Shown here: positions 16,401 through 58,246 of the stretch, one piece after another | Layout: the number at the start of each line of letters is the position of its first letter | Numbering within the stretch: position 1 is the stretch's first letter | From: Patescibacteria group bacterium | GTDB lineage: Bacteria > Patescibacteriota > Patescibacteriia > UBA10025 > JAHIVO01 | Direction: 5' to 3' | DNA: 64,000 bases | Assembly (NCBI GenBank): GCA_041650915.1 | Contig: JBAZKE010000001.1 | Coordinates: 187,284-251,283 of the forward strand | Position numbers and translations under genes: made by a program | The notes under the pieces: model-generated | What the model saw: only the letters and a program-made list of their open reading frames with translations | Database searches by the model: none | What the model was told of the DNA's origin: nothing

Positions 16401-16409
16401 ATAGTGTTA

Positions 16410-22187: not shown

Positions 22188-22202
22188 TTGTATCCGATAT
22201 CT

Positions 22203-24237: not shown

Positions 24238-24571
24238 CTGTATTTTTTGCAGTATCATCAAGGGCGAGGTAGCGTCTGAGATCGTTTATGAGTCAGACGA
24301 GTTCATCGTGATCAAAGATATCGCGCCGAAGGCGCCCGTACACCTGCTGTTGATGCCGAAACGCCACATTGAGACGCTCAATGATATGCGGAGTTCAGAC
24401 AGCGCGCTGCTCGGAGCCATGCACTATAAGGCTATTCAGCTTGCTGCCCGGTTTGGAATTGCAGAGAGTGGGTATAAAATCATCACGAATACCGGGGCAG
24501 ATGGCGGACAGGTAGTCAAGCATGTGCACATTCACCTGCTCGGCGGTAAAAAATTATCAGGGGAAGTATAG
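24230..24571 (+). CDS. HIT-family (histidine triad) nucleotide hydrolase
   Basis: 'CIFCSII', then 'HVHIHLLGG' histidine triad. The ATG at 24230 overlaps the hisS stop by 8 bp. Confidence 0.8.
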   Translation: MGSCIFCSIIKGEVASEIVYESDEFIVIKDIAPKAPVHLLLMPKRHIETLNDMRSSDSALLGAMHYKAIQLAARFGIAESGYKIITNTGADGGQVVKHVHIHLLGGKKLSGEV

Positions 24572-24632: not shown

Positions 24633-24660
24633 TTGCATCAAGTTTGACATTCGGTATAAT
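24633..24660 (+). promoter_or_regulatory. Sigma70-like promoter upstream of rpsU
   Basis: TTGCAT (24633-38), a 16-nt spacer, then TATAAT (24655-60). A GGGAGGTG RBS precedes the GTG start at 24744. Confidence 0.5.
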
Positions 24661-24743
24661 CGCGTGTTATATTAAATAAGCAATTTGACAGTCGGTATGA
24701 GGTTTCATTCATTCATTAATCCAATTAGGGAGGTGAATTTTTT

Positions 24744-25031
24744 GTGGTCGAAGTAAAGAAACGGGAAGGCGAGTCACCTGAGAGTCTGGTACGGCGGTTT
24801 ACGAAGAAGGTGCAGGCGAGCGGTGTTCTGATTCGGGCAAAGCGCGGGAGGTACCGGGCACCGAAGAAGAGTAAGTTGCAGCTCAAGCAGGAGGCCACGA
24901 GGCGGAAGCAAATCAGGGATAAGAAAGAATTCCTGCGCAAGATTGGCAAGCTCGACGATTTTATTGATCCAAAGCGGCCGAACAAACGGGGGACGATGAA
25001 GAAGCTCTTGCAGGCACGGGTAAAAAAGTAA
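24744..25031 (+). CDS. rpsU: 30S ribosomal protein S21
   Basis: 95 aa basic protein. 'ESPESLVRRFTKKVQASGVLIRAKRGRYRAPKKSK' matches the S21 family pattern. GTG start. Confidence 0.8.
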   Translation: MVEVKKREGESPESLVRRFTKKVQASGVLIRAKRGRYRAPKKSKLQLKQEATRRKQIRDKKEFLRKIGKLDDFIDPKRPNKRGTMKKLLQARVKK

Positions 25032-25054: not shown

Positions 25055-25504
25055 ATGACTACATTTGAAAAAATTGAAGTCGATATTCAGAAGGCTCAGA
25101 CAGCCCGCGATGTGTTGACGCTGTCAGTGCTGCGACTCGTGAAGAGTGCACTGCATAATTTTGCAATTGAAAAGAGGAAAAAAGATACCGGACTGAGTGA
25201 AGAAGATACGATTGCCGTCCTCGGCACTCAGGCAAAGCAGCGTAAAGATTCAATCGCAGCGTACGAGAAGGGCGGGCGCTCTGATCTCGCCGAGAAAGAA
25301 AAAAATGAGCTGGCAATCATCAGCCGGTACTTGCCCCCCCAGCTGCCGGATGAGGAGATCAAAAAAGTTGTTCATAGAGTTGTGGAGAGTGTTGGCGCTG
25401 GTGCCGATAGCTTCGGCGCGGTTATGGGCAGGTCCATGGCCGAGCTCAAGGGCAGGGCGGACGGCGCTGCCGTTTCTCGCATCGTAAAGGAAGTGCTGGG
25501 TTAG
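25055..25504 (+). CDS. yqeY: GatB/YqeY domain protein
   Basis: 149 aa. The 'LSVLRLVKSAL...' YqeY/GatB C-terminal domain pattern, commonly encoded next to rpsU. Confidence 0.75.
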   Translation: MTTFEKIEVDIQKAQTARDVLTLSVLRLVKSALHNFAIEKRKKDTGLSEEDTIAVLGTQAKQRKDSIAAYEKGGRSDLAEKEKNELAIISRYLPPQLPDEEIKKVVHRVVESVGAGADSFGAVMGRSMAELKGRADGAAVSRIVKEVLG

Positions 25505-28500: not shown

Positions 28501-31500
28501 GCCGTGCTCCAGTTCCGGCGTCGGTTGATGCGTCGGTTGCCATTCCGCCTAATCTTAATGTTGCGATCGCTACCACGGTCGAGCCGACAGGCACCGACCC
28601 GGTATTTATCGAGCCGACGGCAACGGACGGCGCGGTGACCGAAACCGGAAGCGGCGAGCTCAACGTAACGACCGATCCGCCGCCGGTGCCTCCATCGCCT
28701 GCAGTTGTCAACCATTATCCGACGTGCGGTGATGTCTGTCCAAACGGCCAGATTGGCGGCGCAATAAGCCTCAATGTTGCCGCGAGCATGGTGTACGGAG
28801 GCGGCAGCACGGTGCGGCTGTACGCATGCGCCGACGCTTCGTGTGATCCGGGTTCGCTCACGCCGGTTGCGCCCGGCGACGTGGTATTTAACGCAACGTA
28901 CGACGGCTCGTCCGTAACTAATTTTAGTATCAATTCCGCAACCACGTGGCCCGCTGACCAGAACTACCGGGTATTTTTATCCGGAGCGATCGCCGATGCG
29001 GTAAACGGAATGTTGTTATCGGGCCTCAACTGGACCGATCCGCTCGACGGTGTTTCGGGCTACACGTGGCAATTCAAGACAAAAGCTGGCGCGGGAGCAT
29101 GCTCGCTGGAATCTGTTGAAACAATTCCGCACGTGTTTTCATTGCCAGAGACGATGACCCATAATTACTACGCAAATGCCCGTTCGCTTCCGGACTCGTG
29201 CGATCCGGCGGGCCAGATCCTCGATCCAAATCCGCTCATATGGTCGTGGGATATACGCGATCCGCTCTCACGGGTGCCCGCAGTCGCCTCAGTCGACGCT
29301 TCGGCTGCCGTGCCCGCTAACCTCAACCACGCGGTTGCTACTGCAATCCACAGCACGGTAGCGGATCCCGTCTATGTACGGGCACAGGCGACAGATCCAG
29401 GAGCGCCGGTTACGCATGAGGGCGAAGGTGAGTTTACCATAACGGCAGACCCTCCGCCGATACCGCCCTCGCCGATGGTTGTGAACCACTACCCCACGTG
29501 CGGAGATGTATGCCCGAACGGCTTGGTCCGCGGCACCATTACCCTCGATGTGCTCGCGAGTTTGTCATACGCACCGGCAGGAACCGTCCGCTTGTACTCG
29601 TGTTCTGATCCCGCATGTGCACCGGGTACGATGACATTCGTCCCCGCAGCAGATATCAATTTCGTACCGACCGTCAACGGTGGCAATACTGATTTTGAGA
29701 TAAACCACAGCACCGGCTGGGCAGCGGATACGGGCTACCGCGTTTTTCTCGCCGCGGGGATCACTGATGGCGTTGAAACGCTCGCAAGCATCAATTATAC
29801 CGATCCGGCGGACAGCACTCCCGGCTACTCCTGGACGTTCAAAACAAAGCCTGGCGCTGGCGCGGTGTGCTCCCTCCAGTCCGTTGAGACCGTGCCGAGC
29901 AGCTTGATTCTTGCTGAGACTGAATCTTACAACTATTACGCAAATGCGCGTTCGCTACCAGACTCGTGCGATCCGGCAGGCCAGATCCTCGATCCGAATC
30001 CGCTCACGTGGGTTTGGGACGTCAGGGATCCGCTCCTCCGCGCACCGGTACCTGCCATAGCTGATGCGGTGCCGGCGGTTCCGCCGAATTTGAACCATGC
30101 AGTCACGACCGCGGTCGCCGGTACAGGTGCGAATCCAGTCTATATACGGGCACAGGCTACTGATCCTGGATCGGCTGTTACGCACGAGGATGAGGGCACA
30201 CTCAGCGTTTCGGCAGGGCTTCCCCCGGATCCCCAACCGCCGACCGTCATTGACCGGAACCCGCTCTGCAACGATGTCTGCCCGAACGGCTTGATCCGCG
30301 GCACGATAAGCCACGACGTTGCAGCGAGCATGGCGTACGGCTCCGGCAGTACGGTGCGGCTGTACTCCTGCTCAGACCCGAGCTGTGCCCCGGGAACTCT
30401 CACGATTGTGCCGGATGCCGACATTACCTTTACTGTGACGGTGAATGGCGGCAATACTGATTTTGAAATCAACCACGCGTCGGGGTGGACTCCTGATACG
30501 GGCTACCGCGTGTTTCTGTCGCAGGGAATCACGGATGGAGTACGGAATTTGGCGAATCCAAACTGGTCAGATCCGTTCGACGGCACCTCAGGCTACTCAT
30601 GGGTATTCAAGACAAAACCGGGCGCGGATGCATGCGTGCTTGAAACGGTGGACATGGTCCCATCGATCGCGAGCGAGCCTGCATCGGTAACTATCAGCTA
30701 CTACGCGAATGCCCGTTCACTCCCGGATTCGTGCGATCCCGCCGGCCAAATTATTGATCCCTATACGTTCACCTGGACATGGAATATCAATGATCCGCTC
30801 GCACGCGTGCCTATCGTTGCCTCTGTCGATGCGTCGACTGTCGTGCCGCCGAACTTGAACCACGCTCTCACAACTACGCTCGAGCCGACGGGAACCGACC
30901 CGGTCACCGTCGAAGCCAATGCGCAGGTCGGCGCACTCTCGAGGACGGGCAGCGGTGAGCTCAACATTACCACCGATCCGCCTCCTACTGACCCATATCC
31001 GACCGTTGTCCTTTGGTACCCCGAGTGCCAGGACGTGTGCCCCAATGCGCAGGTTGGCGGGCGGATAACCCTCGACGTGGGCGCCTCGATGTCGTATACC
31101 GCACAGAGCGATACGGTACGGCTCTATACTTGTTCTGATCCAACCTGCGGTCCCGGCACGATGACGTACGTCGGTCCCGGTATGGTAACGCTCACTGCGA
31201 GCTACATTGGCGGTAATACTGAGTTTGCCGTTAATGCACTTGCAAACTGGCCTGCCGATACGTACTACCGCGTGTTCCTTTCCCGCGATATCGTCGATGC
31301 AACGTATGGACATACGCTCGCCAGCCTCAACTGGTCAGACCCTTTTGACAGCACGCCGGGATACTCATGGACATTCAAGACAAAAGCAGGATCCGATCCC
31401 TGCGCACTCGAAACAGTCGAGACGCTTCCCCCGTACGCTTCAACGACGCTCGGTGTGAATGTCACATACCTAGCGAATGGCCGGACCTTGCCTGACTCCT

Positions 31501-34500
31501 GTGATGCAGCAGGCCAGATACTGAATCCGGCTGGCTTGTCCTGGACGTGGTCGTATAATGATCCCTTTGGCAGGCCAGGTTTGCCGCTTGCGACGGTTAT
31601 CCAGGACAGCCTCAATCATGCCCACGCGATCCCGGTTGCGCGGACAAATTTCCAGCCGGTGCAGGCAGTCGCGGGCGCGACGCAGGGCGGTCCGATTGTA
31701 TCTGGAGCCGGCAATCTTGATATACTCGACTGCACGGATAATACGTTCTGCCGCGACCACTGCTTTGCGCTTACCGGGGTGCCCAATAGCTCTACTTGTG
31801 ATCTCGCGACAGGCAGCTGCACGCCGGTTGTCACCTCTCTGGTCCAGAACCAAGGCCCGATTGATACCTCGTTCAGCGTCAACGGCTGCTACTTCGGCGC
31901 AACGAGGGATGATGGCGCGGTTATGTATTATACGGCCGCTCAACCCGGTGGAGTTGCAGCTGCCTTGCTCTGCGGTGATGTCGGCTGGTCCGACAACCAG
32001 ATCATTGCCAGCATGAGCCTCAATCCGGCTCTGTATAGCGCTGGAGATGTCGTCACGGTTTCACCGAGAACGGGAAGCATATACGGCGCCCTAAGCCCGA
32101 ATCCAGGGGATACGGAAGAATTCACCTTGAGCGATGAGTGTATCCCGGGAGTGAGCGTCCCATCCGGCGGCATGCCGATACTCTGCCAGGTTGTGCCAGG
32201 CACGGCTGCATTAGGGCAGGATATATCGCTCGATGGGTTTAATTTCGTTGGGGCGATATCCAGCGCCGCACAGTTTTATACTGGTTCCGGTGTGCCGCCC
32301 TATACGCCTGGAGTTGCCGGATCATTTGTCGCGGCTGTCCCGCCGTATGAGGATCGGTATTCAAATGTGACGGTTCCCGGAGCAGCAGTGAGCAGCGCTA
32401 CGCTCGGCGTGCGGATGCTTGTCGATAGCTGTCCATCCAATCCAGTTGGCTTTGGCGTGCGGTGCGACGACGATACTGACTGTACGGTGCCCGGATACCA
32501 GTGCTGTGCATTCGATCCGGGGCACGGCGAGAATGTTTGTTCCCTTGATGCACTGTGCAGCTCCGGCGGGCCTGGAGATCCGTGTACCGATGGCGCTGTC
32601 TGCCCGGTTGGCCCGTCGTGTATTGATCCCGCTAACTATTCATGCCTGACCGACGGTGGCGACTGTAACTGCTGCTGCGCTCCGGGGCAGGTGAGCACGA
32701 CCGGGCTCGATTGCGTGACAAACCAGGCTCCCTGTGATGGCGGCACCCGCGGGTTGTACTGCGGGTGCACGAGTGACGCTGACTGCGGTAATCCGGCAAC
32801 TATCGGCTGCTCTCCCGTGGCGCCGAACTGCTGCTACCAGCGTCCGCGCGTAGTAACCGCGCAGTCAACGCCGCTACCTGGCGCGCCAAATGTATGCCTC
32901 AACGCAGGGATGATCGTCGTATTCGATCAAGCAATGGATAACAGTACGCTTATAGCGGGTAACATTATTCTGCAGGATGTAACCGGGAGCACATCGAGAG
33001 CCATCACCGTCACTGGGATGGGGGACCGCGCCCTTGTGCATCCGGATGCGCTGCTAGAGTCAAACCACGTACATAGGATTGTCATACTCGGACAGCCCCT
33101 CGGGGGGGTTCGTTCTGCACGACAGATTGCCTTGGCCGGCGCGGGTTTAAACTATGATTATAATTCAGACGGTGTCCTCGACAGCTTCGCGTGGACGTTC
33201 ACGACCCGGTTGAACACGTGCGCTATTACTGGATACTATATGCGGGCAGGCTGGGCCACTGGATCGGATTTTGATCCGCGGGTAACTCCCGTCAGCTTCA
33301 ATTGCGCTCACGATACGTGCTTCAACGACCGCAATACAACACATCCAGGCAACAATATTCACGTCTATGCCTACCCGCTCGATGAGAACGGCAACTACGT
33401 TGCCGATTCAATCATTTCCTGGTCAGAATTTGATCCGTCGAATGCCCTGCTTTTGGAAGATCCGGTTTTTCCTCCTGATCCGCCGTCCCCGAATGGCATC
33501 AACCACTATCTGACTGCGCAGAACAGCACTGGCATGGTAACCGTTACTGTAACGGCAAACTCTCCGTCGTCCGGCACCTACAGTGAGAATTTTGAGGTCA
33601 ACGTCGACCTCTGTACCGCGCCGTGGCCTGATGTGTGGGCAGGAGATGACTACCCATTTGTGGATGATACCGGCAATCCCACCCACGAAACACAGTTTTC
33701 CGTGTCGTACTGCCGTGAACCGGGAGGGCTGCCCCTGCTCAATTCGCCGTCCGTTGCGATCATTGATGAGAATGTTCCGAGTGAGCCGGGGAGAGATGAG
33801 CTCCTTAAAGAATTTTTCTTCCTCAGGGCTGGCATAGCTGATGCGATCGGCATCCGGGTCATGGAGAATGAGGGCGGAAAATCGCCTCGCGACTGGTACT
33901 TTCAGCAGTTTGGGCCGTCCGCTCCTGAGCCGCAGGCGCTCACTATCGACGGGTATCCGGCAGTCCGGTCCGGCAGGACGGTGTACGTGACCGCGTGGAA
34001 TGTTGATCTCGGCACCGGTATCATATACCCGAACGTCTACCTCATGTCGTACAGCGACGGGGCATCTGCTGAGACGATTGAGATATACAACAGGATGCTC
34101 GCAAACTGGCGCTTTAATGCGAACCTCACCGCAACTGAAAAAGCGCAGCTTCAGCGCGATATGAAACGCGTGAGCGACCTGAGCGATATCTTCAACAAAC
34201 TCCTCGACTATAAGGCGGCGCATGGCACGTTTCCACTGCTCGAGGGGGGGACTTTTATCAACGGGGTCAGCACGTCGCGGTGGCCATCATGGCAGGAAAC
34301 ACTCGGCGCCGCAGCGGGGATTACGCTGCCGGTGGATCCGCTCAATAACCTGTCTCCAATCACCGCATGCCCGTCGCCGCCATTTGACCAGCAGACCTGC
34401 TGGGATGATGCCGGCAAAGTGTACGTTACCCCGGCCAGTTCACACATCTATTTGTACCGCGCCAGTTCGAGCGGGGACGTCGCGAATCTGTACGCGCGCC

Positions 34501-36749
34501 TTGAGCGTATCTGGTACGATGGCGGTGTAGACTTGTTCATGTGGGCCGGAGCGCCGGTCTTCAACCCGTGCGTTGGCATTCCCAATGCTACGTGCAATGC
34601 CTTCAACTACGCGCACCTCCTGTCGGGGAGCGCAAGCGACCATACGCCGCCGGTTTTCTTGTGGGCGCACGCGGATGGCTTCACGTTCCTTCCCGATGTC
34701 GGGCCGCCACCGCCGACCCTCCCGGGAGTCAATCCGCTGATTACAGCTTCGTTTATTGACGATATGGAGCTTGCGTATGCTGAGTTTTACATTGACGGGA
34801 TTCTCCGCCATACGTCACCGGTGGAAGCAGGCTTCTTCTACCAGTGGGATGGGTTTGTGCAGACAGATTTTTCCGAGCAGGTGCATAATTTTATGATCAG
34901 GGGCTACGATACTGCGGGCAACTATTCGGATGCGAGCGCGGACATCCAGATCACGCACAATTTCGGAGATACGACCCCGCCCTTTATACAGTTCATTAAC
35001 CCTCTCGATGGCACTACGGTATCGGGCACGGTTCAGGTCCGGGTAACGGGCAGTGATAACAGGCAGATCACGTCATTCCAGCTTGATGTGACTTGCACGG
35101 GCGGCCCTTCGTTCGGGCCCATACCGCCAGTTCCGAATCCGCATACGATTTCGTACAGTTGGGATACGACATCCCAGCCAAACGGCCCCTGCTCGCTCGA
35201 GGCGACGATCTATGACGGCACAAATCCGCCTGTCGTCGCAGCGGTTACCGTGAATATCGATAACCAGGATACGGTTGAGCCGGCCGTAACCCTGACGAGC
35301 GCCCCGGGAACGTGCGCTGCCGACGGTGCAGCCTGCAATATCAGCGTGCCGTGCGCGAACACGGTATGCGACGGCGGATCGAATGACCGCGCCGCCTGTT
35401 CCGGTCCGGCTGATTGCGATACGGGCATCCCGTGCACGCCAATCTGCGAACGTTCGGGTGTCGTTCCGGTCCAGGTAACGGCGACCGATAACCAGGCGGT
35501 CACGAGGGTTGATTTCCTTGTCGATGGCATTGTGCAGGACCAGGGAACGGAGATCGGGCCAAATACCTATGAGTGGCTATGGGATACGCGGATTTACTCG
35601 AACGGCGACCATACGCTCTCGGTGAATGCCTACGATGCTTATAGTAACAGCGGCGGTTTGAGCGTCCAGTACCGCCTGTGGAATGCCGAGCAGGATTCGG
35701 TCCCGCCAACCGTGTCTTTCGTTTCACCTCCGACCCCGGTTTACGGCTCGTCGGTCGATAATACGATAACGGTTGAAGTTGATGCTCTCGACAATCCGGG
35801 CGGTTCAGGCGTGCAAAGGGTTAACTTTTACCTCGATTACGTCTGGAAAGCTGCGGATGCGACAGCCGGGCCGTATTCATGGAACCTCGACACGCTTCCC
35901 ATCTCCGATGGCTGGCACAGAATCCAGGTTGATGCGGTCGATAACAATGGCAACCGCAGCGAGAGCATAGAAATACGGGTTGAGGTTCGCGGCACGGGGG
36001 GTCCGCTCATAACGTATGCGCTCGTGACGCCCTGCAGCGGCGGCCAGTTTACGCCGTTCAACTTTACGGCTGTCGTGACGGATCCGGATGGCGTGAGCAG
36101 GGTGGAAGCGATCATCCAGCAGCCGGATAATGTTCCGATTGACCGGTCTACCATGACTGATGCCGGCCTGGATACGTACATCGGATCTTGGAATTCCGGC
36201 ATCCACGAGGGGACATTCTTTGTTGATATTGAAGCCGAAGACGCGGCAGGGAATATTAGCTGGCTCGATAACATTGAGTGCACGGCAGTGCCCTGTGCCG
36301 TGAACGGAGATGCGTGTAGTGCCGCTTCGGACTGTTGCAGCGGTTACTGTGGCGGCGGCGGCATCTGTGCAGAGCCACCCGCCTGCCTGCCGAATGGGAA
36401 TGCATGTACGGCTAACGGGGATTGTTGCAGCAACTACTGCGATAGTGGGGGGTCGAACCAGTGTGAAGACCTGCCCTCACCCCCGACATGCCCTGACGGG
36501 AATTGTGATGTAGGCGAGGATCCGGATACATGCCCTGCTGATTGCGGGAGCAATTGGTCGGTGTACCTGTGCCATACTCAATTTGGGGAAGTACACGTGA
36601 TCAGCTCGTGGTGTGATACATCCGCAGCTTGCTCTAATCCCGGACCGCCACGGTGGGAGTGCGAAGCATCCGATCCGGCAAATCATGCGTGTCTCAATCC
36701 CGCAAGCCCCGTGGTGTGCTGCATGGTTGATGTAAACTGTGCAATATAG
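25581..36749 (+). CDS. Giant cell-surface protein (3722 aa) with signal peptide, VirB2/TrbC-like double-TM N-terminal anchor, tandem Cys-bearing beta-repeat modules, knottin-like Cys modules and Ig-like C-terminal domains
   Basis: Uninterrupted 11,169-nt ORF. N-terminus has a signal peptide (…PVHA|QAG) followed by two hydrophobic helices separated by a basic loop (…FLWMTARGDVARIDKAKKVIQRAIIGLIIVLL…). Five ~255-aa repeats each contain NHYPxCxDVCPNxxxGG…TVRLYxCxDxxC…GGNTDFxINH…YRVFL…GYSWxFKTK…YYANARSLPDSCDPAGQILDP. C-terminal CxxxxxxCxxxxxCCxxxCxxxxxC modules and Ig-like segments (PPTVSFVSPP…) follow. Confidence 0.8.
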   Translation: MGIENKKSFLRGFSASLIVGAFLLLPLFFGMSNPVHAQAGVSGELGATFGLGTADLMSTVISIVQWFLGFLGLIAVIMILYGGFLWMTARGDVARIDKAKKVIQRAIIGLIIVLLSWSIVTFIYKVVSDATSTPPLPAHCSDGIQNFDETGVDCGGVDCLPCGHILPTDDFEWDENETSFASGGDYATDVNRCSRIQALFNHNVDQASVDALWAPDNSGEIFVEGFTPVGSVEWVTSGKMLTFKHDDDLLGSDLGPVGYRLWMPKAVRDTDGSGILLETISTGVSGEGTNPHGGGTPNDAFYWDFQTGTEIDDVMPTITDTYPISDLASPWYPDQSVVRAPEIEISFNEAIDATTIYGAGGHPIAGNFVLEELASFGGAVVGTVPDANLGVEMMAQGFRIRMVPPNLLESWTWYRITIDHIEDLCGNPMPGPYVWEFQTTDLAPGVSGYYPTGSSECPDVIPTIVFNTQMFSDLVHIEINGSDGSQYIAEMRPSNINPASNPNFILGTLPGSPNMGYLQVADHAMPVDNRFRVFEFHPSDIVYNPVPLSTNTTYTVDVTTDKLIDVSTYLSQSWSFTTADAASCTCAPFITSISPNAGPRGECITVHGPCFQGTPANPASITSFTFVDPYDGIPGVTTATPDGSGPTYVATTLPLAFNDGDFARPQIEITYDPPSSFGTVASSNASVDYYVATPDTATGPCLFGINPSSGYHGTGVSLTGTRFNPTSSLKRVNFTGDFQTLTSWYDDWATTTVPGGAAYGINQVSIENDAGPSNKVPFEVSTIPPNEPVVINHYPICQDVCPTAQVGGTISLNVTASMLYGPASTVRLYECTDATCASLTFVPAADVVFTTSLIGGNTDFSINHSTGWAVDTNYRVVLTNAIQSSTGGYLSTVNYTDPFSGELAYSWTFKTKPDAAGCVMETVETIPPTASEPVGVHIDYVANARTAPDSCDPSGQILNANLFTWTWAVDDPLSRAPVPASVDASVAIPPNLNVAIATTVEPTGTDPVFIEPTATDGAVTETGSGELNVTTDPPPVPPSPAVVNHYPTCGDVCPNGQIGGAISLNVAASMVYGGGSTVRLYACADASCDPGSLTPVAPGDVVFNATYDGSSVTNFSINSATTWPADQNYRVFLSGAIADAVNGMLLSGLNWTDPLDGVSGYTWQFKTKAGAGACSLESVETIPHVFSLPETMTHNYYANARSLPDSCDPAGQILDPNPLIWSWDIRDPLSRVPAVASVDASAAVPANLNHAVATAIHSTVADPVYVRAQATDPGAPVTHEGEGEFTITADPPPIPPSPMVVNHYPTCGDVCPNGLVRGTITLDVLASLSYAPAGTVRLYSCSDPACAPGTMTFVPAADINFVPTVNGGNTDFEINHSTGWAADTGYRVFLAAGITDGVETLASINYTDPADSTPGYSWTFKTKPGAGAVCSLQSVETVPSSLILAETESYNYYANARSLPDSCDPAGQILDPNPLTWVWDVRDPLLRAPVPAIADAVPAVPPNLNHAVTTAVAGTGANPVYIRAQATDPGSAVTHEDEGTLSVSAGLPPDPQPPTVIDRNPLCNDVCPNGLIRGTISHDVAASMAYGSGSTVRLYSCSDPSCAPGTLTIVPDADITFTVTVNGGNTDFEINHASGWTPDTGYRVFLSQGITDGVRNLANPNWSDPFDGTSGYSWVFKTKPGADACVLETVDMVPSIASEPASVTISYYANARSLPDSCDPAGQIIDPYTFTWTWNINDPLARVPIVASVDASTVVPPNLNHALTTTLEPTGTDPVTVEANAQVGALSRTGSGELNITTDPPPTDPYPTVVLWYPECQDVCPNAQVGGRITLDVGASMSYTAQSDTVRLYTCSDPTCGPGTMTYVGPGMVTLTASYIGGNTEFAVNALANWPADTYYRVFLSRDIVDATYGHTLASLNWSDPFDSTPGYSWTFKTKAGSDPCALETVETLPPYASTTLGVNVTYLANGRTLPDSCDAAGQILNPAGLSWTWSYNDPFGRPGLPLATVIQDSLNHAHAIPVARTNFQPVQAVAGATQGGPIVSGAGNLDILDCTDNTFCRDHCFALTGVPNSSTCDLATGSCTPVVTSLVQNQGPIDTSFSVNGCYFGATRDDGAVMYYTAAQPGGVAAALLCGDVGWSDNQIIASMSLNPALYSAGDVVTVSPRTGSIYGALSPNPGDTEEFTLSDECIPGVSVPSGGMPILCQVVPGTAALGQDISLDGFNFVGAISSAAQFYTGSGVPPYTPGVAGSFVAAVPPYEDRYSNVTVPGAAVSSATLGVRMLVDSCPSNPVGFGVRCDDDTDCTVPGYQCCAFDPGHGENVCSLDALCSSGGPGDPCTDGAVCPVGPSCIDPANYSCLTDGGDCNCCCAPGQVSTTGLDCVTNQAPCDGGTRGLYCGCTSDADCGNPATIGCSPVAPNCCYQRPRVVTAQSTPLPGAPNVCLNAGMIVVFDQAMDNSTLIAGNIILQDVTGSTSRAITVTGMGDRALVHPDALLESNHVHRIVILGQPLGGVRSARQIALAGAGLNYDYNSDGVLDSFAWTFTTRLNTCAITGYYMRAGWATGSDFDPRVTPVSFNCAHDTCFNDRNTTHPGNNIHVYAYPLDENGNYVADSIISWSEFDPSNALLLEDPVFPPDPPSPNGINHYLTAQNSTGMVTVTVTANSPSSGTYSENFEVNVDLCTAPWPDVWAGDDYPFVDDTGNPTHETQFSVSYCREPGGLPLLNSPSVAIIDENVPSEPGRDELLKEFFFLRAGIADAIGIRVMENEGGKSPRDWYFQQFGPSAPEPQALTIDGYPAVRSGRTVYVTAWNVDLGTGIIYPNVYLMSYSDGASAETIEIYNRMLANWRFNANLTATEKAQLQRDMKRVSDLSDIFNKLLDYKAAHGTFPLLEGGTFINGVSTSRWPSWQETLGAAAGITLPVDPLNNLSPITACPSPPFDQQTCWDDAGKVYVTPASSHIYLYRASSSGDVANLYARLERIWYDGGVDLFMWAGAPVFNPCVGIPNATCNAFNYAHLLSGSASDHTPPVFLWAHADGFTFLPDVGPPPPTLPGVNPLITASFIDDMELAYAEFYIDGILRHTSPVEAGFFYQWDGFVQTDFSEQVHNFMIRGYDTAGNYSDASADIQITHNFGDTTPPFIQFINPLDGTTVSGTVQVRVTGSDNRQITSFQLDVTCTGGPSFGPIPPVPNPHTISYSWDTTSQPNGPCSLEATIYDGTNPPVVAAVTVNIDNQDTVEPAVTLTSAPGTCAADGAACNISVPCANTVCDGGSNDRAACSGPADCDTGIPCTPICERSGVVPVQVTATDNQAVTRVDFLVDGIVQDQGTEIGPNTYEWLWDTRIYSNGDHTLSVNAYDAYSNSGGLSVQYRLWNAEQDSVPPTVSFVSPPTPVYGSSVDNTITVEVDALDNPGGSGVQRVNFYLDYVWKAADATAGPYSWNLDTLPISDGWHRIQVDAVDNNGNRSESIEIRVEVRGTGGPLITYALVTPCSGGQFTPFNFTAVVTDPDGVSRVEAIIQQPDNVPIDRSTMTDAGLDTYIGSWNSGIHEGTFFVDIEAEDAAGNISWLDNIECTAVPCAVNGDACSAASDCCSGYCGGGGICAEPPACLPNGNACTANGDCCSNYCDSGGSNQCEDLPSPPTCPDGNCDVGEDPDTCPADCGSNWSVYLCHTQFGEVHVISSWCDTSAACSNPGPPRWECEASDPANHACLNPASPVVCCMVDVNCAI
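27930..31760 (+). repeat. Intragenic tandem array of 5 units of ~765 bp (252-258 aa)
   Basis: Anchor motif aaccactaccc/aaccattatcc (NHYP) recurs near 27954, 28710, 29484, 30250 and 31010. Unit lengths are 756-774 bp and units are diverged (~50-65% aa identity). Confidence 0.7.
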
Positions 36750-36847: not shown

Positions 36848-38479
36848 ATGAACAAAAAAAATAAGCTGATTGGGGTTGCGGCACTGGGGGCATGCCTGGT
36901 ACTCTTTGGCTACGGGGCGTATGCCGCATCCGAAGTCGGGTCTGAACCGACGTTCGAAGTCGATACATCACTGCCCTACGGCCCCGAATTGACCGGAGGT
37001 TTTACCATCTCTCCGCCGCAGGTTGATCCTGGCCAGCCGGTCGAGTTTTCCGCGGGTGTCTACGATCAGTCAGGCGTAAAATCCGTGTACGTCGACATTG
37101 TTTCTCCGGCGACTGACACAACGCTCAAGTCAATAGAACTGCTCGACGACGGTTCGAATGATGACGGTACGGCCGGCAACAATGTTTTTGGCAGAGGATG
37201 GGATACGAGCGGGATGAGCGTCGGTGTCTATACGGTTCGGCTGAGAATGGCTGACAAGCTGGATAACCTCAATACGCAGGATGCGGGGTACATCGCACTC
37301 GGTGAAGGCGGGTGCCTGCACGACGATGAATGCACGTCACCCGAACGCTGCTGCTACGGAGTATGCGTAAGCAATGCATGCTCGACGGATGCCGACTGTG
37401 ACGATGCAGATGATGCCACGCTCGATCGCTGCAATACGGTTGATGTCTGCCCGGCGTACTGTTCAAATAACGTATTGCCATGCGTGGGCGGAGACGGCGT
37501 CTGCCCCCCGGGATGCGGTGAAGATGCGTGGGAGTGCGTCGGCGGTGACTATAATGGTATTGCGTGCGATCCCGCTGACAGCGAGAGCTGTGGCGGTCCA
37601 TCATCGGGGAGCGTCTGCACGTTGATTGAGGCTGATTCGGACTGTACGGTAGATACGACGGCACCCGTCGTGTCTGTCCAGACCCCGGGAGATTCAGAAA
37701 CAATTGATGGAAATACCTACACTGAGTATGAGGTTACCGTTACGGCATCTGATCCGGAATCGAATATCGCGCAGGTTCGCTTTTTGCTCGATGGAACTGA
37801 GCAGTCAGTATGGCTCGGCGACCCAGCTCCCGGAACGGGGCTGTATACCTGGATTATGCCTGTCGGGCCGCTCACTGAGGGGGCTCACACTATCATTGCC
37901 GAAGCAGAGAATGGCATCGGGACACTCAGCGAGGACGGGGTATCCTTTATCTACACTGCTCCTACGTCGAGCGTTGCCCCGACAGTGAGCATTACTGCCC
38001 CTGCGAACGGCGCTACGGTTACGGGAAGCACGACCGTTGATGTGACGGCGACGGATGACGGCCTCGTCAATGAGGTTAGCTTTTACCACTGCGTTGTCGG
38101 CCTGCAGGATTCTGATTCGAGCTTTACGCCCGCCTCGACGGTTAATGTAACGCTCAACTCCTGGAATGCGACAAGCACCGCAACCGCCCTGCTCGAAAAT
38201 TACATTATGCCGTTTGCCGCGTTGCAGCAGGACGTGAAGAAGTTCAAGCTGCCGTTCGTACCGGTTGCGCATGCGGCAGATGATTCGAACTGTACCACGA
38301 CAACAACGACTCGCAACTATACGCAGTGCATCTATGCCATGGCCATTGACGACGACAGCCTTGTCGGTACCAGTGCGTACGTTTACGTGACCACTCCGAT
38401 TACGACAACAACGACAAGCTGCACGACCACAAATCGCATGGACACTCCGTCTAGTGCGTCCAGCAGCTCGGCAATCTAG
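36848..38479 (+). CDS. Secreted surface protein, paralogous in module content to the C-terminal part of the upstream giant protein
   Basis: 543 aa. Signal peptide (LGACLVLFGYGAYAAS), a knottin-like Cys module (CLHDDECTSPERCCYGVCVSNAC…) and Ig-like domains (TAPVVSVQTPGDSE…, APTVSITAPANGATVTGS…). RBS AAAGGAG upstream of the start. Confidence 0.7.
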   Translation: MNKKNKLIGVAALGACLVLFGYGAYAASEVGSEPTFEVDTSLPYGPELTGGFTISPPQVDPGQPVEFSAGVYDQSGVKSVYVDIVSPATDTTLKSIELLDDGSNDDGTAGNNVFGRGWDTSGMSVGVYTVRLRMADKLDNLNTQDAGYIALGEGGCLHDDECTSPERCCYGVCVSNACSTDADCDDADDATLDRCNTVDVCPAYCSNNVLPCVGGDGVCPPGCGEDAWECVGGDYNGIACDPADSESCGGPSSGSVCTLIEADSDCTVDTTAPVVSVQTPGDSETIDGNTYTEYEVTVTASDPESNIAQVRFLLDGTEQSVWLGDPAPGTGLYTWIMPVGPLTEGAHTIIAEAENGIGTLSEDGVSFIYTAPTSSVAPTVSITAPANGATVTGSTTVDVTATDDGLVNEVSFYHCVVGLQDSDSSFTPASTVNVTLNSWNATSTATALLENYIMPFAALQQDVKKFKLPFVPVAHAADDSNCTTTTTTRNYTQCIYAMAIDDDSLVGTSAYVYVTTPITTTTTSCTTTNRMDTPSSASSSSAI

Positions 38480-38510
38480 CTTGTGCGAGTGGTAAAGGAA
38501 AATTCACGTA

Positions 38511-39158
38511 ATGACTGATAAAGATACAAAACAAGTCGAAGATATTTTCGCTGAAGCTGATTCTGGGGGCACTGCACGCAGTGCCCCCCAGAAAAAAGCG
38601 CCGGTAAAACCAATTGCACAGCCGGCACCGGCCGCACGGGAAGTGAGAAATATCCAGCCGACAGCCAATCGTCCGCAGTACCGGAAGACGAAGATTATGC
38701 TAATAGTGCTTTTGAGCGCTGGGGCGCTCATCGTCGTCGGCGGCGGTGCAGTGCTCGTGACAAGCGGGGTATTCTCCGGTGAAAATGCGAACAGCACTCC
38801 CGCAACGAACAGTGCGGCAACGGACGGGTCCGCACCGACGGTTAATGTACCGACGAACAGCTCCGGGACGGTACGGCTGCAGAAAGTAGATTTGAGTTTG
38901 CAGCCGGTTGATACGGATAGTGACGGACTCACCGATGCAGAGGAAGCTGAGCTCGGCACGGATATCCGCACGGTTGACACGGATGGCGACGGCCTCTATG
39001 ACCGTGAGGAGGTTCGGGTATACGGTACGGATCCCCTGCAAACCGATACAGATCAGGATGGCATTGTTGACGGGACCGAGGTTGCAAACGGGTATGATCC
39101 TTCCGGACCGGGGATGCTGCTCGATTTGGATGCTGCAATTGAGAGGCTTCAATCTTAA
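38511..39158 (+). CDS. Single-pass membrane protein with thrombospondin-type-3/dockerin-like Ca2+-binding repeats
   Basis: 215 aa. Cytoplasmic basic N-terminus, one TM helix (IMLIVLLSAGALIVVGGGAVLV), a Thr/Asn-rich linker, then DTDSDGLTDAEE / DTDGDGLYDREE / DTDQDGIVDGTE repeats. Confidence 0.65.
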   Translation: MTDKDTKQVEDIFAEADSGGTARSAPQKKAPVKPIAQPAPAAREVRNIQPTANRPQYRKTKIMLIVLLSAGALIVVGGGAVLVTSGVFSGENANSTPATNSAATDGSAPTVNVPTNSSGTVRLQKVDLSLQPVDTDSDGLTDAEEAELGTDIRTVDTDGDGLYDREEVRVYGTDPLQTDTDQDGIVDGTEVANGYDPSGPGMLLDLDAAIERLQS

Positions 39159-39181
39159 TATGCTTTATTAATACCTTTGGT

Positions 39182-40318
39182 ATGCCAGACAATCCACAGC
39201 AAGGGCAGACGGGCAGTCCAGCGCCGAGCCAGCGTAAAGCGCGCATCCATACAATGCCGGATAAGTTTTACATTGATGATGCCGGCGGCGGTGGCAGCAA
39301 AAATACATTCTTAATCATTGGAATAATCATTCTCGTCGTTGCGATCCTTGGGGCTGCAACCTTTTTTCTGCTCCAGCGGTACGGAGGCGGTGAAGATAAT
39401 GCGAACAGCGCAACGAATGCCACGACAAACGGTGTGAGCAATATAAATACAGGCAATGTAAACGCAGCGACGAATAGTACCGTCAATACGCTGGCTAACG
39501 CCAATGCTGCGCTCAATACCAATACTTCTAACGGCAATGTCAATGCCGCGTTGAATGTCAATTCCATTACCAACAATCTATTCCCGAACAGCAATACGGC
39601 AACGAATACCGCCTCCAATGTCAATGCAATCGTTTCGAGCAGGGATTCTGACTCCGATAGCCTCACCGATATTGAAGAAGCTCTTTTTGGAACCAATTTA
39701 TCGCTATCAGATACTGACGGCGATGGCTACCAGGACGGCCAGGAGGTAACGAGCGGGTACGATCCGAACGGGACATCTGCGCTCGATGAGAACAGCGCCG
39801 TGTACCGGTATACGGACGGCGTCGGCAGCTATTCAATCCTGTATCCAAACGCGTGGGATGTTGCAACGGATCCGCAGAGCGCATACGGTAAAATGTTCAG
39901 CAGCACCAACGGTGAATTCATCGAGGTTTCGATTGAAGAAAACCCGGCGAAGTTGGGCGCACGTGACTGGTACCTGACGAAGTCGCCCGGCATTGATTCA
40001 ACTCAGATTTTGTCCGTCTCAACGTGGGACGGCAAGCTCGTCGGGGTGAAGAGCCCAGACGGCTCCACCGTATACTATACGAAGGGAGATAACGCGTACG
40101 TGATATCGTATAACATCAATATCCTCTCGGAAGCAAACTTCCTTACGACGTTCGAAATGATGTACCAGAGTTTCGTAGTAATTGAATCAGCGCTCACCAA
40201 TACGAATACGAACACGTCAAATACAAATTCAAATACCAATGTAAATGTTAATTCCAATGGAAATTCAAATACCAATACAAATACAAATAGCAACACGAAC
40301 AGCACGCCTCATCTGTAA
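39182..40318 (+). CDS. Single-pass membrane protein with Asn-rich low-complexity segments and a DxDxDG Ca2+-binding motif
   Basis: 378 aa. TM helix (FLIIGIIILVVAILGAATFFLL), Asn/Thr-rich tracts, DSDSDSLTDIEEALFGTN…DTDGDGYQDGQE, a globular segment, and a C-terminal (N-T/S-N)n tail. The stop abuts the ybeY start. Confidence 0.65.
   Translation: MPDNPQQGQTGSPAPSQRKARIHTMPDKFYIDDAGGGGSKNTFLIIGIIILVVAILGAATFFLLQRYGGGEDNANSATNATTNGVSNINTGNVNAATNSTVNTLANANAALNTNTSNGNVNAALNVNSITNNLFPNSNTATNTASNVNAIVSSRDSDSDSLTDIEEALFGTNLSLSDTDGDGYQDGQEVTSGYDPNGTSALDENSAVYRYTDGVGSYSILYPNAWDVATDPQSAYGKMFSSTNGEFIEVSIEENPAKLGARDWYLTKSPGIDSTQILSVSTWDGKLVGVKSPDGSTVYYTKGDNAYVISYNINILSEANFLTTFEMMYQSFVVIESALTNTNTNTSNTNSNTNVNVNSNGNSNTNTNTNSNTNSTPHL
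40195..40313 (+). repeat. Imperfect AAY-ACN microsatellite-like coding repeat (Asn-Thr/Ser)n
   Basis: aatacgaatacgaacacgtcaaatacaaattcaaataccaatgtaaatgttaattccaatggaaattcaaataccaatacaaatacaaatagcaacacgaacagc. Confidence 0.5.
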
Positions 40319-40759
40319 ATGGAAATAGCGGTAAACAATACAGAGGGATTTCGGTTTACTACAGCGTTTATTGAAAAGCTATTCAGGGTTATTAGTACCG
40401 TACTGCCACGTTTCAAGCGTGGTATTGTTTCAGTCGCGTTTGTCGGCAACCGGACGATACGCAGACTCAACGCGCGGTACCGCCAGAAGGATGCGGTTAC
40501 CGACGTGCTGTCTTTTCCTGAGATGCAGCAGATTCGCACCGTACGGCGGGGGCAGTTCCTTGGAGAAATTATTATTTCGTATCCGCGGGCACGGTCGCAA
40601 GCTCGGGAGCGGGGTGAGGCAGTGAGCCGTGAACTCGTCCGTCTGCTCGTGCATGGCTTTTTACACCTCGTCGGCTATGACCATAGAGGCGTTCGGGACG
40701 CCCGCAAGATGGAAGCACAGGAGGGCAGGGTCATCAGACTATTTGAGCGAAAAAAGTGA
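40319..40759 (+). CDS. ybeY: Endoribonuclease YbeY (rRNA maturation factor)
   Basis: 146 aa. 'DVLSFP' and the 'HGFLHLVGYDH' zinc-binding motif. Confidence 0.85.
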   Translation: MEIAVNNTEGFRFTTAFIEKLFRVISTVLPRFKRGIVSVAFVGNRTIRRLNARYRQKDAVTDVLSFPEMQQIRTVRRGQFLGEIIISYPRARSQARERGEAVSRELVRLLVHGFLHLVGYDHRGVRDARKMEAQEGRVIRLFERKK

Positions 40760-40765
40760 ACTACT

Positions 40766-41134
40766 ATGTTACTCATTAATCTCAGGAGGCTGCTAAAAAG
40801 CTTTCGGTACGCGTTTCGGGGATTCTGGTATGCGTTTAAAAGCGAACAGAATATCCGTGTACACCTTCTCGCGAGCGTAGTCGTCATTACCCTCATGATT
40901 TACTTTCAGGTTGCATTCTGGGAAGCAATTATCCTATTCCTCCTCATGATGCTCGTGCTTATTTTAGAGCTTATAAACACCATTTTTGAAAAGGTCATCG
41001 ATATGCTCCGTCCGCGCATTCATTTCTATGCAGAGGTTATTAAAGATATCATGGCAGCCACGGTGCTTGTTTCGTCAATTGGAGCCCTGGTAATCGGCCT
41101 GCTCATTTTCCTGCCCTATATCGTCGGCAGGTAG
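40766..41134 (+). CDS. dgkA: Diacylglycerol/undecaprenol kinase
   Basis: 122 aa, three TM helices. 'EQNIRVHL' and 'ELINT..E' DgkA motifs. Confidence 0.8.
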   Translation: MLLINLRRLLKSFRYAFRGFWYAFKSEQNIRVHLLASVVVITLMIYFQVAFWEAIILFLLMMLVLILELINTIFEKVIDMLRPRIHFYAEVIKDIMAATVLVSSIGALVIGLLIFLPYIVGR

Positions 41135-41203
41135 CCACCGGGGGATTTTGCATAATACCGAGTTATACTTTATAATAGAGGTACATATCTGAACAAGTAA
41201 TTT

Positions 41204-42457
41204 ATGCCAAAGGAAGATATCATTACAGGGCTCGATATTGGGTCAACAGCGATTCGAGTCGTTGTCGGGCAGCTTAATCCGCACGATCGGAAGATCCACG
41301 TGCTCGGAGCGGCTGAAAATACCGCAGAGGGCGTCAACAAGGGGAGCGTGACGAGCATTGAGGACGGCGTTTCATCGATTTCCGGAGCGCTTGAGAAGGT
41401 CGAGCGTATGGTTGGCATACCGGTCGAGCACGCTTTTGTGGGTATAAACGGCAACCACATCACCTCGCAGGACAGCCATGGCGTCATTGCAGTGTCGAAG
41501 TCCGACGGCGAGATCAGGGAAGAAGACGTTGAGCGTGTCATTGAAGCCGCCCAGGCAGTCGCAACCCCCCCAAACTATGAGATTCTGCATGTGATACCCC
41601 GCAGCTTTACCGTCGACAATCAGCAAGGCATCAAGGATCCTATCGGGATGACCGGAATACGGCTCGAGGTTGATGCGCAGATCATCCAGGGGCTCTCCGC
41701 GCAGATAAAAAACCTGACAAAGTGCGTCTACCGCACCGGTATCGACATTGATGACATTGCGCTCGGCGTGCTTGCCTCGTCAGAGTCGGTATTGACGAAG
41801 AAGCAGAAGGATCTCGGGGTTGCGCTGCTCAATATCGGCGGTTCGACGACGAGCCTGCTCGTGTTTGAGGAGGGTGACGTTCTCCATACCGCTATCTTGC
41901 CGGTTGGCTCAAGTCACATTACGAATGACATCGCGATCGGCCTCCGCACTTCGATTGACCTTGCTGAAAAGATAAAAATCGAGTACGGAACCGCGCTGCC
42001 GGCGGAGATCAACAAGCGCGATGAGATCAACCTTGAGGAGGTTGACTCGCGTGAAGAGGGCGCTGTCTCGCGGAAGCACGTTGCTGAGATCATTGAAGCT
42101 CGGTGTGAAGAGATATTCAAGTTGGCCAACAAAGAGCTCGAGAAGATAGACCGCGCTGGCCTCTTGCCGGCAGGCGTTGTGTTGACCGGCGGCGGCGCAA
42201 AGCTTCCCGGCCTCATTGAAGTCGCGAAGCAGGAATTCAAGCTGCCCGCGTCACTCGGGTATCCGCTTGATCTCGGTTCGACCGCCGTTGATAAGGTCAA
42301 CGATTTGAATTATTCGACAGCAGTTGGGTTGTTGAGCTGGGGAGCGAGTTTTTCCGGGCGTAGCGGTGAGGGCAAAGTTTTTTCAATGCCGAAGTTTTCT
42401 TCGGTGGCTGACGCTACATCGAAGATGAAGAAGTGGTTTAAAACTTTAGTCCCGTAA
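41204..42457 (+). CDS. ftsA: Cell division protein FtsA
   Basis: 417 aa actin-fold protein. '[16 protein letters not shown]', 'GGGAKLPGL', C-terminal amphipathic tail. Confidence 0.9.
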
Positions 42458-42467: not shown

Positions 42468-43691
42468 GTGAATGGTATGAGGCAAAAATCTAACGGACAG
42501 AATACTATGGAAATTAAACCCGATATTGAGACGTTTGCAAAGATTAAAGTCGTCGGTGTCGGTGGATCCGGAGGCTCAGCGATTGATCGGATGATTAACG
42601 ACAAGATTCGCGGCGTCGAGTTTATTGCTGTTAATACGGATGCGCAAGCCCTGCACCACTCAAAAGCGCCCCATAAGCTGCATATCGGCAAGACGACGAC
42701 AAGAGGCCTCGGAGCGGGGATGGACCCCGAACTCGGCAGAAAAGCTGCGGAGGAGGACCAAGATGAAATCCACGATATGTTCAAGGGCGCGGATATGGTT
42801 TTCGTTACGTGCGGGCTCGGTGGCGGTACTGGCACGGGAGCCGCGCCGCTCATTGCTGAGATTGCCCGAGATGCCGGCGCGCTTACCGTCGCAGTGGTTA
42901 CGAAACCGTTTGCATTCGAGGGGGCACAGCGCAAGAGCATCGCAGAGAGCGGACTGGGGGATTTGATTGATAAAGTTGATACGATCATTACGATACCGAA
43001 CGACCGGATTTTGCAGATTATTGATAAAAAGACATCGTTGCTCGATGCGTTCAAAACGGTCGATGAAGTGCTTCGGCAAGGCGTGCAGGGGATTTCCGAC
43101 CTTATTACCGTACCCGGCCTTATCAACGTCGATTTCGCCGATGTACGTTCGATCATGGAGAATGCCGGTTCTGCACTGATGGGGATCGGCCAGGGAGCAG
43201 GGGAAAACCGGGCTGTTGACGCGGCAAAAGCGGCAATTGACAGCCCACTGCTCGAGTTATCGATTGAGGGAGCCAAGGGCATCCTCTTTACGGTGACGGG
43301 TGGCCCTGACCTGGGGATGTATGAGGTGAATGAAGCTGCCCGCATCATCACTTCATCAGCAGATCCAAATGCGAGGGTAATTTTTGGATCTGTCATTGAT
43401 GAATCCATGAAAGACCAGATTAAGATAACGGTCATCGCAACCGGTTTCGGCACGAAGCAGAAAACGATTAAAAAGATAAAACCGATGGAATTCGGAGCAC
43501 TTGACCGTGAAATAGCGTCCAAACCCTCTTTTTCTACCGCGCGAGTTTCAGCGGCAACCCCGCCGTTATCCCGAAAACCGGAACGGAGGCCAGTCGTTGA
43601 CCGTTCTGTCCCTGAAAAAACGCAGACTGCTGCGGAAAAAGAAGAAGAGGATCTTGAAATCCCCGCGTTTATTCGGAAGAAGATGATGTAA
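42468..43691 (+). CDS. ftsZ: Cell division GTPase FtsZ
   Basis: '[13 protein letters not shown]' and the tubulin signature '[10 protein letters not shown]'. Annotated with a GTG start at 42468, though the true start may be a downstream Met (MEIKP… at about 42507). Confidence 0.9.
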
Positions 43692-58245: not shown

Positions 58246-58246
58246 T

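Follow-up and report, generated by a model that had tools for sequence, protein, structure and literature searches.

In this work, we describe a gene cassette in a 64,000-nucleotide stretch of DNA from a Patescibacteria group bacterium (contig JBAZKE010000001.1, positions 187,284 to 251,283 of the forward strand), hereafter called the window, to which all coordinates refer and whose G+C content is ~0.50-0.59. The cassette consists of four co-directional genes on the + strand, encoding a giant surface protein of 3722 amino acids (aa), hereafter the giant, and proteins of 543, 215 and 378 aa, hereafter p543, p215 and p378; the coordinates, lengths and gaps (98, 31 and 23 bp) reported for these genes in an earlier sequence-only reading were confirmed, and the co-directional packing extends past position 40318, at which that reading had ended, with ybeY following at 0 bp and dgkA at 6 bp. 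Our results show that p215 and p378 are single-pass membrane proteins carrying bacterial thrombospondin type-3 (TSP3) repeats, encoded as a fixed pair next to the giant within a recurrent gene order, and that the cassette probably marks an undescribed core part of the Patescibacteria cell envelope. The features of the cassette are as follows.

25581-36749, + strand: gene of the giant, 3722 aa (Pfam T4SS_pilin, Big_5 and Big_7)
25749-25949, + strand: T4SS_pilin (VirB2/TrbC-like) hairpin of the giant, aa 57-123 (PF18895, E=2.8e-9)
36848-38479, + strand: p543 gene, occupying the variable slot of the cassette (Pfam Big_7, E=2.3e-16)
38511-39158, + strand: p215 gene (TSP3_bac; full-length homologues at 35-57% identity)
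38538-38555, + strand: cytoplasmic motif EDIFAE of p215, aa 10-15
38901-39110, + strand: TSP3 module of p215, aa ~131-200, with three DxDxDG units (PF18884, E=1.4e-13)
39182-40318, + strand: p378 gene
39245-39268, + strand: cytoplasmic motif IHTMPDKF of p378, aa 22-29
39635-39772, + strand: TSP3 module of p378, aa ~152-197, with two units (PF18884, 21.9-23.1 bits, cutoff 25)
39794-40186, + strand: C-terminal PsbP/Mog1-fold domain of p378, aa ~205-335 (Foldseek)

Both small proteins display the same general organization. In p215, a cytoplasmic motif is followed by a transmembrane (TM) helix, a disordered stalk and three TSP3 repeats; in p378, a cytoplasmic motif and a TM helix lead into a disordered stalk rich in Asn and Thr, after which come two TSP3 repeats, the PsbP-fold domain and a tail that is again rich in Asn and Thr. 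Hydropathy analysis found a single hydrophobic segment in each protein (aa 65-83 in p215, aa 43-61 in p378), preceded by a hydrophilic N-terminal tail of 40-60 aa, and the AlphaFold2 (AF2) models, built on alignments of 50 and 43 sequences, contain one long helix each (aa 60-84 and aa 40-67). The topology proposed in the sequence-only reading, with a cytoplasmic N-terminus (N-in) and a single TM helix, was confirmed. In both models, the cytoplasmic tails and the stalks after the TM helix were of low confidence or disordered.

The same reading had described the DxDxDG repeats of these proteins as dockerin/TSP3-like, of which the TSP3 part stands and the dockerin part, addressed below, does not. 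The repeats are non-random, as only five DxDxDG occurrences were counted in the six frames of the window and four of them fall within the p215 and p378 genes. In p215 the units start at aa 134, 156 and 179, with a period of 22-23 residues, and those of p378 are DSDSDS at aa 155 and DTDGDG at aa 177. The p215 repeats match the Pfam family TSP3_bac (PF18884) over two scoring stretches, with 50.8 bits against a cutoff of 25; p378 itself scores below that cutoff, its module shares 36% identity with the p215 module, and TSP3_bac matches were obtained for 49 of 65 p378 orthologues, the best at 2e-13. According to these results, the repeats of both proteins are bacterial TSP3 repeats. Furthermore, the segments are ordered modules and not disordered linkers: the predicted local distance difference test (pLDDT) reached 95-98 for the TSP3 modules, as well as for the C-terminal domain of p378, and in a Foldseek search of the PDB the p215 module superposed on a segment of the Bap B domain (7c7r/7c7u) with a root-mean-square deviation of 0.6-0.7 A over 44-45 columns, 47-48% identity and a probability of 1.0. 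The aligned Bap segment is presumably a Ca2+ site, and a PDB profile search likewise matched Bap, together with lanmodulin. Foldseek matches of the module to OmpA (5wtl) and iota toxin Ib were non-significant (E 6.7-9.8, probability 0.02-0.03), and among named families NCBIfam yielded only sub-threshold matches at the level of the repeats (CglD, MtsD and lanmodulin). Both TSP3 modules are predicted to fold around Ca2+, which they would bind.

The repeat region of p215 also retrieved many proteins combining TSP3_bac with OmpA_C. We further observed TSP3_bac fused to an L,D-transpeptidase YkuD domain in secreted proteins of ~250 aa (P0171-P0204; locus L089, 6001-6741), which links the repeat to the cell-wall zone; the contig of L089, with one such gene, is of a gene content like that of the Candidate Phyla Radiation (CPR). 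At another locus (L078, 594-4417), eight tandem small T4SS_pilin (VirB2-like) genes lie ~4 kb upstream of the gene for a 711-aa TSP3-repeat protein. A brief look at TSP3 loci in other contexts (L069-L086) gave no clear pattern.

The C-terminal domain of p378 (aa ~205-335) has a PsbP fold, yet lies outside the PsbP family proper. Its model was matched by Foldseek, with probabilities of 0.99-1.0, to the PDB structures of BT_1490 (3hlz, E=1e-5), CyanoP (2lnj), PsbP (2xb3, 1v2b), Tsi3 (3wa5) and Mog1p (1eq6), and a profile search recovered 2xb3 at E=0.006. The Pfam family PsbP (PF01789) was matched by p378 with E=0.033 and 14.7 bits (cutoff 23.5), and sub-threshold matches to it occurred in 30 of the 65 p378 orthologues, the best at 3.1e-5. 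Searched alone, the domain retrieved 792 clusters at 50% identity, and among the 150 best matches listed it was almost always placed C-terminally in proteins of 250-700 aa. The proteins of PsbP/Mog1 fold matched here sit in protein complexes, as PsbP does in photosystem II and Tsi3 does when bound to Tse3. If docking occurs, the PsbP-fold domain of p378, of which the sequence-only reading was unaware, is a better candidate surface for it than the TSP3 modules.

On the other side of the membrane, each family carries its own short motif, in both cases more conserved than anything else outside the repeats. The p215-family motif, E-D-[IM]-F-A-E / D[ILMV]F, was found in 60 of 64 orthologues, and the p378-family motif, [IV]-[HY]-[TV]-M-P-x-[KR]-F, located 12-70 residues before the TM helix, in 56 of 63, compared with a mean of 2.4 in shuffled tails. 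Neither motif was found in other open reading frames (ORFs) of the window or of the loci scanned; a general sorting signal was therefore rejected, the motifs being family-specific. No convincing match to EDIFAE was found in the C-terminal peptide of the FtsZ encoded in the window. The IHTMPxKF motif presumably resembles that of PilN, a likeness that we treat as a lead only. The conservation of these motifs indicates that p215 and p378 are not passive extracellular anchors, and they likely contact a conserved cytoplasmic or membrane-proximal partner.

The position of the cassette is conserved. Loci were collected through look-ups of p215 homologues and by scanning a single genome for each GTDB species with a 378-family alignment; ORFs were called in the 65 loci having a p378 orthologue with a PsbP-type domain, and were searched with the proteins of the window. 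In these 65 species-level genomes the recurrent order is rpsU-yqeY-giant-(variable gene)-TSP3 protein-TSP3/PsbP protein-ybeY-dgkA-ftsA-ftsZ. The four genes thus belong to a neighbourhood kept in evolution: a TSP3 single-pass gene lies directly upstream of the 378-family gene in 64 of the 65 loci, and an ORF of at least 1000 aa corresponding to the giant is present in every locus having enough upstream DNA, counting as giants the ORFs of >2980 aa of L025, L049 and L060, which are too divergent for phmmer. Where the N-terminus of the giant is in range, it matches the T4SS_pilin hairpin. Downstream, ybeY directly follows the 378-family gene in almost all loci having the corresponding DNA, usually followed by dgkA, ftsA, ftsZ and nrdR, and in most loci ftsA-ftsZ lie within 0.5-1.4 kb of the p378-family gene. 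The slot between the giant and the pair, occupied here by p543, is elsewhere either empty or taken by a second giant or by a third, often Cys-rich, TSP3 protein, and its filling by differing extracellular proteins across clades fits a shared extracellular assembly. Contig labels included Kerfeld-, Falkow-, Magasanik-, Uhr-, Komeili-, Buchanan- and Nomurabacteria, the latter represented by a closed genome of 1.08 Mb (CP060223.1). In addition, many metagenome-assembled genomes titled 'uncultured Gammaproteobacteria bacterium isolate binchicken_...' (L008, L012, L017, L021, L023 and others) have a locus of Patescibacteria type, and the taxonomy in those titles is probably a placeholder or wrong.

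The frame in which the cassette lies, together with a gene referred to below, has the following features in the window.

22161-22856, + strand: lepB
22858-24237, + strand: hisS
24182-24571, + strand: HIT-family gene
24744-25031, + strand: rpsU, encoding ribosomal protein S21, which opens the conserved backbone (from its translation; the counterpart ORF in L073 matches Pfam Ribosomal_S21)
25055-25504, + strand: yqeY, directly 5' of the giant gene (Pfam YqeY, E=7.7e-43; same place in L002, L014, L020 and L087)
40319-40759, + strand: ybeY, 0-bp gap after p378 (Pfam YbeY, E=3.5e-33)
40766-41134, + strand: dgkA, diacylglycerol kinase, 6-bp gap after ybeY (Pfam DAGK_prokar, E=8.4e-30)
41204-42457, + strand: ftsA (Pfam)
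42468-43691, + strand: ftsZ (Pfam)
after ftsZ, + strand: nrdR and ribonucleotide reductase
62181-64000, + strand, running past the end of the window: polytopic membrane protein with a type I dockerin, outside the cassette (PF00404, E=2.7e-14)

The wider backbone, lepB-hisS-HIT-rpsU-yqeY ... ybeY-dgkA-ftsA-ftsZ-nrdR, is constituted by deeply conserved housekeeping genes, and its rpsU-yqeY ... ybeY-dgkA frame presumably resembles the rpsU-yqeY...phoH-ybeY-dgkA-era region of Bacillus. Two kinds of departure from the common order were seen. In five loci (L026, L030, L037, L045 and L054) other genes stand in place of ybeY and dgkA; the TSP3 pair is intact in all five and, in the four for which upstream DNA was available, still adjoins the giant. 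Further downstream, at a distance of 6-9 kb, ftsA is present in four of the five loci, followed by ftsZ in three; neither gene is in range in L037. Two further loci, L073 (8776-10321) and L082 (8951-10354; labelled Andersenbacteria), have no giant, and instead carry a T4SS_pilin protein of 132-152 aa, rpsU and one TSP3 bitopic protein before ybeY-dgkA-ftsA-ftsZ. From this arrangement, the association of a VirB2-like protein with a TSP3 tether at this site appears older than the expansion of the giant, which suggests that a small VirB2-like gene either gave rise to the giant or was replaced by it.

The giant starts with a signal peptide, followed by a VirB2-like hairpin of two helices and about 3600 extracellular residues. 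Its aa 57-123 score 37.4 bits with T4SS_pilin (PF18895; cutoff 26.6), hydrophobic segments lie at aa 13-31, 67-85 and 106-124, and NCBIfam gave a sub-threshold match of the hairpin to a pilin-like conjugal transfer protein; the giant is thus held in the membrane by a VirB2-like hairpin. VirB4 or other families of type IV secretion system (T4SS) components were not found among the ORFs scanned in the 64-kb window. The extracellular part comprises five tandem repeats of ~255 aa (aa ~785-2045, 48-61% identity), Big_5 and Big_7 immunoglobulin (Ig) domains and Cys-rich modules, the protein having 120 cysteines. Conservation among related giants is most widespread in a non-Ig stretch, aa ~2650-3000 (nucleotides ~33530-34580), matched in 41 loci. 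This stretch had no Pfam or PDB sequence match and may constitute the functional core of the giant; its 'LPVDPLN' segment may be pseudopilin-like. As for p543, which the sequence-only reading took for a secreted paralogue of the giant, a signal peptide is consistent with secretion, and it is followed by two Big_7 Ig domains and a Cys-rich segment. The alignment to the giant (27% identity over 186 aa, E=3e-4) covers the Big_7 Ig domains, with additional weak Cys-rich matches, and since it is confined to these shared modules, p543 is not a true paralogue. The protein is lineage-specific, with orthologues only in the closest relatives of the window (L001, L002, L007, L009 and L010), as Big_7 proteins of ~500 aa.

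Elsewhere in the window, a pilT-like ATPase gene and pilM (15306-16400, - strand) are directly followed by mfd (region 15306-17483, - strand). No pilN or pilO adjoins the pilM of the window; the order pilM-pilN-pilO is present in L089. Competence genes are present, including dprA (10605-11777, - strand). A ComEC gene (Competence domain), a separate gene of metallo-beta-lactamase fold and an SPFH/Band_7 protein gene (56719-59107, 59200-60252) lie upstream of the gene at 62181.

The protein encoded at 62181 had been grouped with p215 and p378 as a third protein of the same kind. It is indeed polytopic and carries dockerin repeats, which constitute a true type I dockerin, its full length being 678 aa; it belongs, however, to a different family and lies 22 kb away. 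In locus L090 (13935-19498), the gene of the dockerin protein precedes those of a 1119-aa NHL/FG-GAP beta-propeller protein and a FecR/fn3 protein, in that order. For the two cassette proteins, no PF00404 match was obtained at E<=0.1, hhalign gave a probability of only 2% for the alignment of a p215-family profile with the dockerin of the window, no dockerins were present among the Foldseek PDB matches of the TSP3 module, and in the AF2 models the helices after each Ca2+ loop have only 6-7 residues. Furthermore, no cohesin was found in the giant, p543 or the other ORFs scanned in the window, nor among the neighbours of the dockerin protein. The cohesin-dockerin-like surface assembly proposed for this locus was rejected on the basis of these Pfam, hhalign and Foldseek results and the lack of a cohesin in the window. 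More generally, a DxDxDG motif alone does not make a dockerin, a point to be considered in annotation.

Integrating these findings, the explanation that we favour, tentatively and at less than even confidence, is that p215 and p378 are Ca2+-stiffened membrane tethers acting with the VirB2-anchored giant as a core module of the envelope. In this model, the two are a fixed pair of type II (N-in) single-pass proteins of the Patescibacteria cell envelope, and the compact TSP3 module of each, borne on a TM anchor and a flexible stalk, would serve as a Ca2+-rigidified joint at the stalk end. The pair would work with the giant, the Ig-repeat surface protein of the nearby upstream gene; the PsbP head, perhaps along with the TM or cytoplasmic parts, would contact the giant or a wall layer. 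The whole would be a core module, probably constitutively expressed. A functional surface partnership of the cassette proteins is plausible, and p215 and p378 may physically contact the giant. Several observations weigh against this explanation. The fusion of TSP3_bac to the wall-acting YkuD and the wall-binding OmpA_C would fit a function at the wall in which the giant has no part, and the model names no counterpart for the conserved motifs, which suggest a partner in the cytoplasm. Given a backbone so deeply conserved, the adjacency could be inherited gene order and not functional coupling, and the five loci that split the pair from ybeY may represent one evolutionary event. As for transcription, the cassette may be expressed as a unit. 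A consensus scan placed promoter-like sites before rpsU (24644-24673, 11/12), ftsA (41147-41176, 10/12) and nrdR (11/12), and no terminator-like sites on the + strand in the intergenic gaps from rpsU to dgkA. The promoter and terminator totals do not exceed shuffled controls, so that the scan is only compatible with co-transcription and is not evidence for it.

Some of these observations would be accounted for if p215 and p378 were independent proteins of the wall zone, that is, generic Ca2+ spacers or organisers between the membrane and the wall or S-layer, unrelated to the giant and analogous to the TSP3 linker of OmpA-type tethers, their position being the inherited order of a streamlined genome. 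The recurrence of TSP3_bac with the peptidoglycan-related OmpA_C and YkuD is in line with this, as is a backbone order conserved far beyond the cassette, and CPR lineages with small genomes keep gene order well. Nevertheless, the pair adjoins the giant or a VirB2-like gene wherever the DNA suffices, also where ybeY and dgkA have moved, and the cytoplasmic motifs and PsbP head argue for specific partners and not for a passive spacer; we consider this account unlikely, while giving it serious weight. A second possibility, which we regard as distinctly unlikely, places the partners in the divisome or cytoskeleton: the motifs of p215 and p378 would bind FtsA, PilM or FtsZ, as PilN binds PilM or FtsN binds FtsA, so that the pair couples the division or pilus machinery to the outer envelope, with the giant as a neighbour or cargo at division sites. 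Conservation of the motifs is high and each is confined to its family (60/64 and 56/63), p378 abuts ybeY at 0 bp with ftsA-ftsZ close by in most loci, and mostly still within 6-9 kb when ybeY and dgkA are displaced, and the pilM of the window stands without adjacent pilN/pilO; moreover, the topology and the two adjacent paralogous genes parallel PilN/PilO, PilN having a conserved N-terminal motif to which the FtsA-like PilM binds (PMC5805733). On the other hand, the TSP3 and PsbP ectodomains are unlike those of PilN/PilO or FtsQ/FtsN, EDIFAE is no convincing mimic of the FtsZ C-terminal peptide of the window, and ftsA appears to have a promoter-like site of its own. The likeness of IHTMPxKF to the PilN motif is, for its part, only putative.

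A combination of the favoured tether model with such a connector can also be envisaged, namely a trans-envelope complex specific to Patescibacteria in which the giant's hairpin and the TSP3 pair lie in the membrane, the motifs sit on FtsA or PilM, and the TSP3/PsbP heads hold the giant; we see it as a long shot. If true, ultra-small episymbionts would display their main surface adhesin, or S-layer-like protein, in mechanical and spatial coupling to the division or pilus cytoskeleton. The original proposal of the sequence-only reading, in which the DxDxDG modules dock in a Ca2+-dependent manner onto cohesin-like Ig domains of the giant and p543, draws on a Ca2+-loop consensus common to dockerins and these modules, on the ordered fold of the modules and the conserved gene linkage, and on the true dockerin protein in the same genome. 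Against the lack of PF00404, hhalign and Foldseek support for a dockerin in p215 and p378, the short helices after the loops, and the absence of a cohesin from the window ORFs scanned and from the surroundings of the dockerin protein, it is very improbable indeed.

The Patescibacteria (CPR) represent a very large and almost uncultured share of bacterial diversity, and little is known about the construction of their envelope and their attachment to hosts. The location of the cassette inside an rpsU...ybeY-dgkA-ftsAZ backbone common to many lineages suggests a core envelope structure and not a variable accessory adhesin, and its proteins constitute concrete, expressible targets for studies of binding, Ca2+ and localisation. 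Should the motifs bind FtsA or PilM, the cassette would show how the surface architecture of these minimal cells is tied to their division.

TSP3 repeats, PsbP-fold domains and the VirB2-like proteins of Patescibacteria are each known. In our literature searches, which covered TSP3 in Patescibacteria, the family PF18884, pilin-bearing giant proteins of CPR, and VirB2 in combination with surface or Ig-like terms, the cassette was not described, and we found no description of the TM-stalk-TSP3(-PsbP) architectures, the invariant pairing, the cytoplasmic motifs, the giant-VirB2 hairpin fusion or the placement between yqeY and ybeY in many lineages; a preprint on the Pam pilus concerns a different system. 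VirB2-like proteins, whose genes form arrays of 2-11, are widespread among Patescibacteria, and one array is reported as essential in Candidatus S. epibionticum (PMC12102498); that study of the Patescibacteria T4SS makes no mention of giant fusions or a TSP3 partner. Unlike those proteins, the hairpin of the giant is fused to about 3600 extracellular residues and lies within a housekeeping backbone.

With the cohesin-dockerin systems of cellulosome type, the cassette shares the D-x-D/N-x-D-G Ca2+ loop and the idea of a modular surface assembly; it differs from them in having neither F-hand pairs nor cohesin partners. PilN and PilO are likewise encoded by adjacent genes for two bitopic N-in proteins with short cytoplasmic N-termini, and the FtsA-like PilM binds a highly conserved N-terminal motif of PilN (PMC5805733); the ectodomains of PilN/PilO are, however, coiled coil and ferredoxin-like, in contrast to the TSP3 and PsbP of p215 and p378. 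Bacterial TSP3 repeats also occur in the OmpA of Capnocytophaga gingivalis (5wtl), for which a calcium-binding capability is given in the title of Dai et al. (2017, Cell Calcium 66:78; cited in PMC12045341). The match of the p215 model to 5wtl was not significant (E=6.7, probability 0.03), and, unlike this diderm protein with its C-terminal peptidoglycan-binding domain, p215 and p378 have no OmpA domain.

The closest functional parallels come from Myxococcus. CglD, whose importance is Ca2+-dependent, associates with and stabilises the CglB/Glt gliding adhesion complex (10.1101/2023.10.19.562135). Its Ca2+ module is TSP3/COMP-like, with repeats of DxDxDG type, through which p215 matched CglD and MtsD in NCBIfam at scores well short of the family cutoffs. 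CglD is a 1130-aa outer-membrane lipoprotein with twelve repeats and a VWA domain, whereas p215 and p378 are anchored by a TM helix, lack VWA and carry three and two repeats, respectively. In the outer-membrane exchange system of Myxococcus xanthus, TraB, in which TSP3 repeats link a beta-barrel to an OmpA-like domain, is the partner of the Cys-rich receptor TraA; the two colocalise at 1:1, and a complex of 1:1 composition is predicted for them (PMC12045341). The giant and TSP3 proteins of related loci also contain Cys-rich modules, similar in style to those of TraA. Conversely, TraB belongs to a diderm outer membrane, whereas p215 and p378 are bitopic in the cytoplasmic membrane, with disordered stalks and, in p378, a PsbP head; the giant, in turn, is anchored by a VirB2-like hairpin, and there is no sequence homology to TraA/TraB beyond the repeats. 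TraB and CglD thus offer two precedents in which the partner of a bacterial surface receptor or adhesin carries TSP3 repeats.

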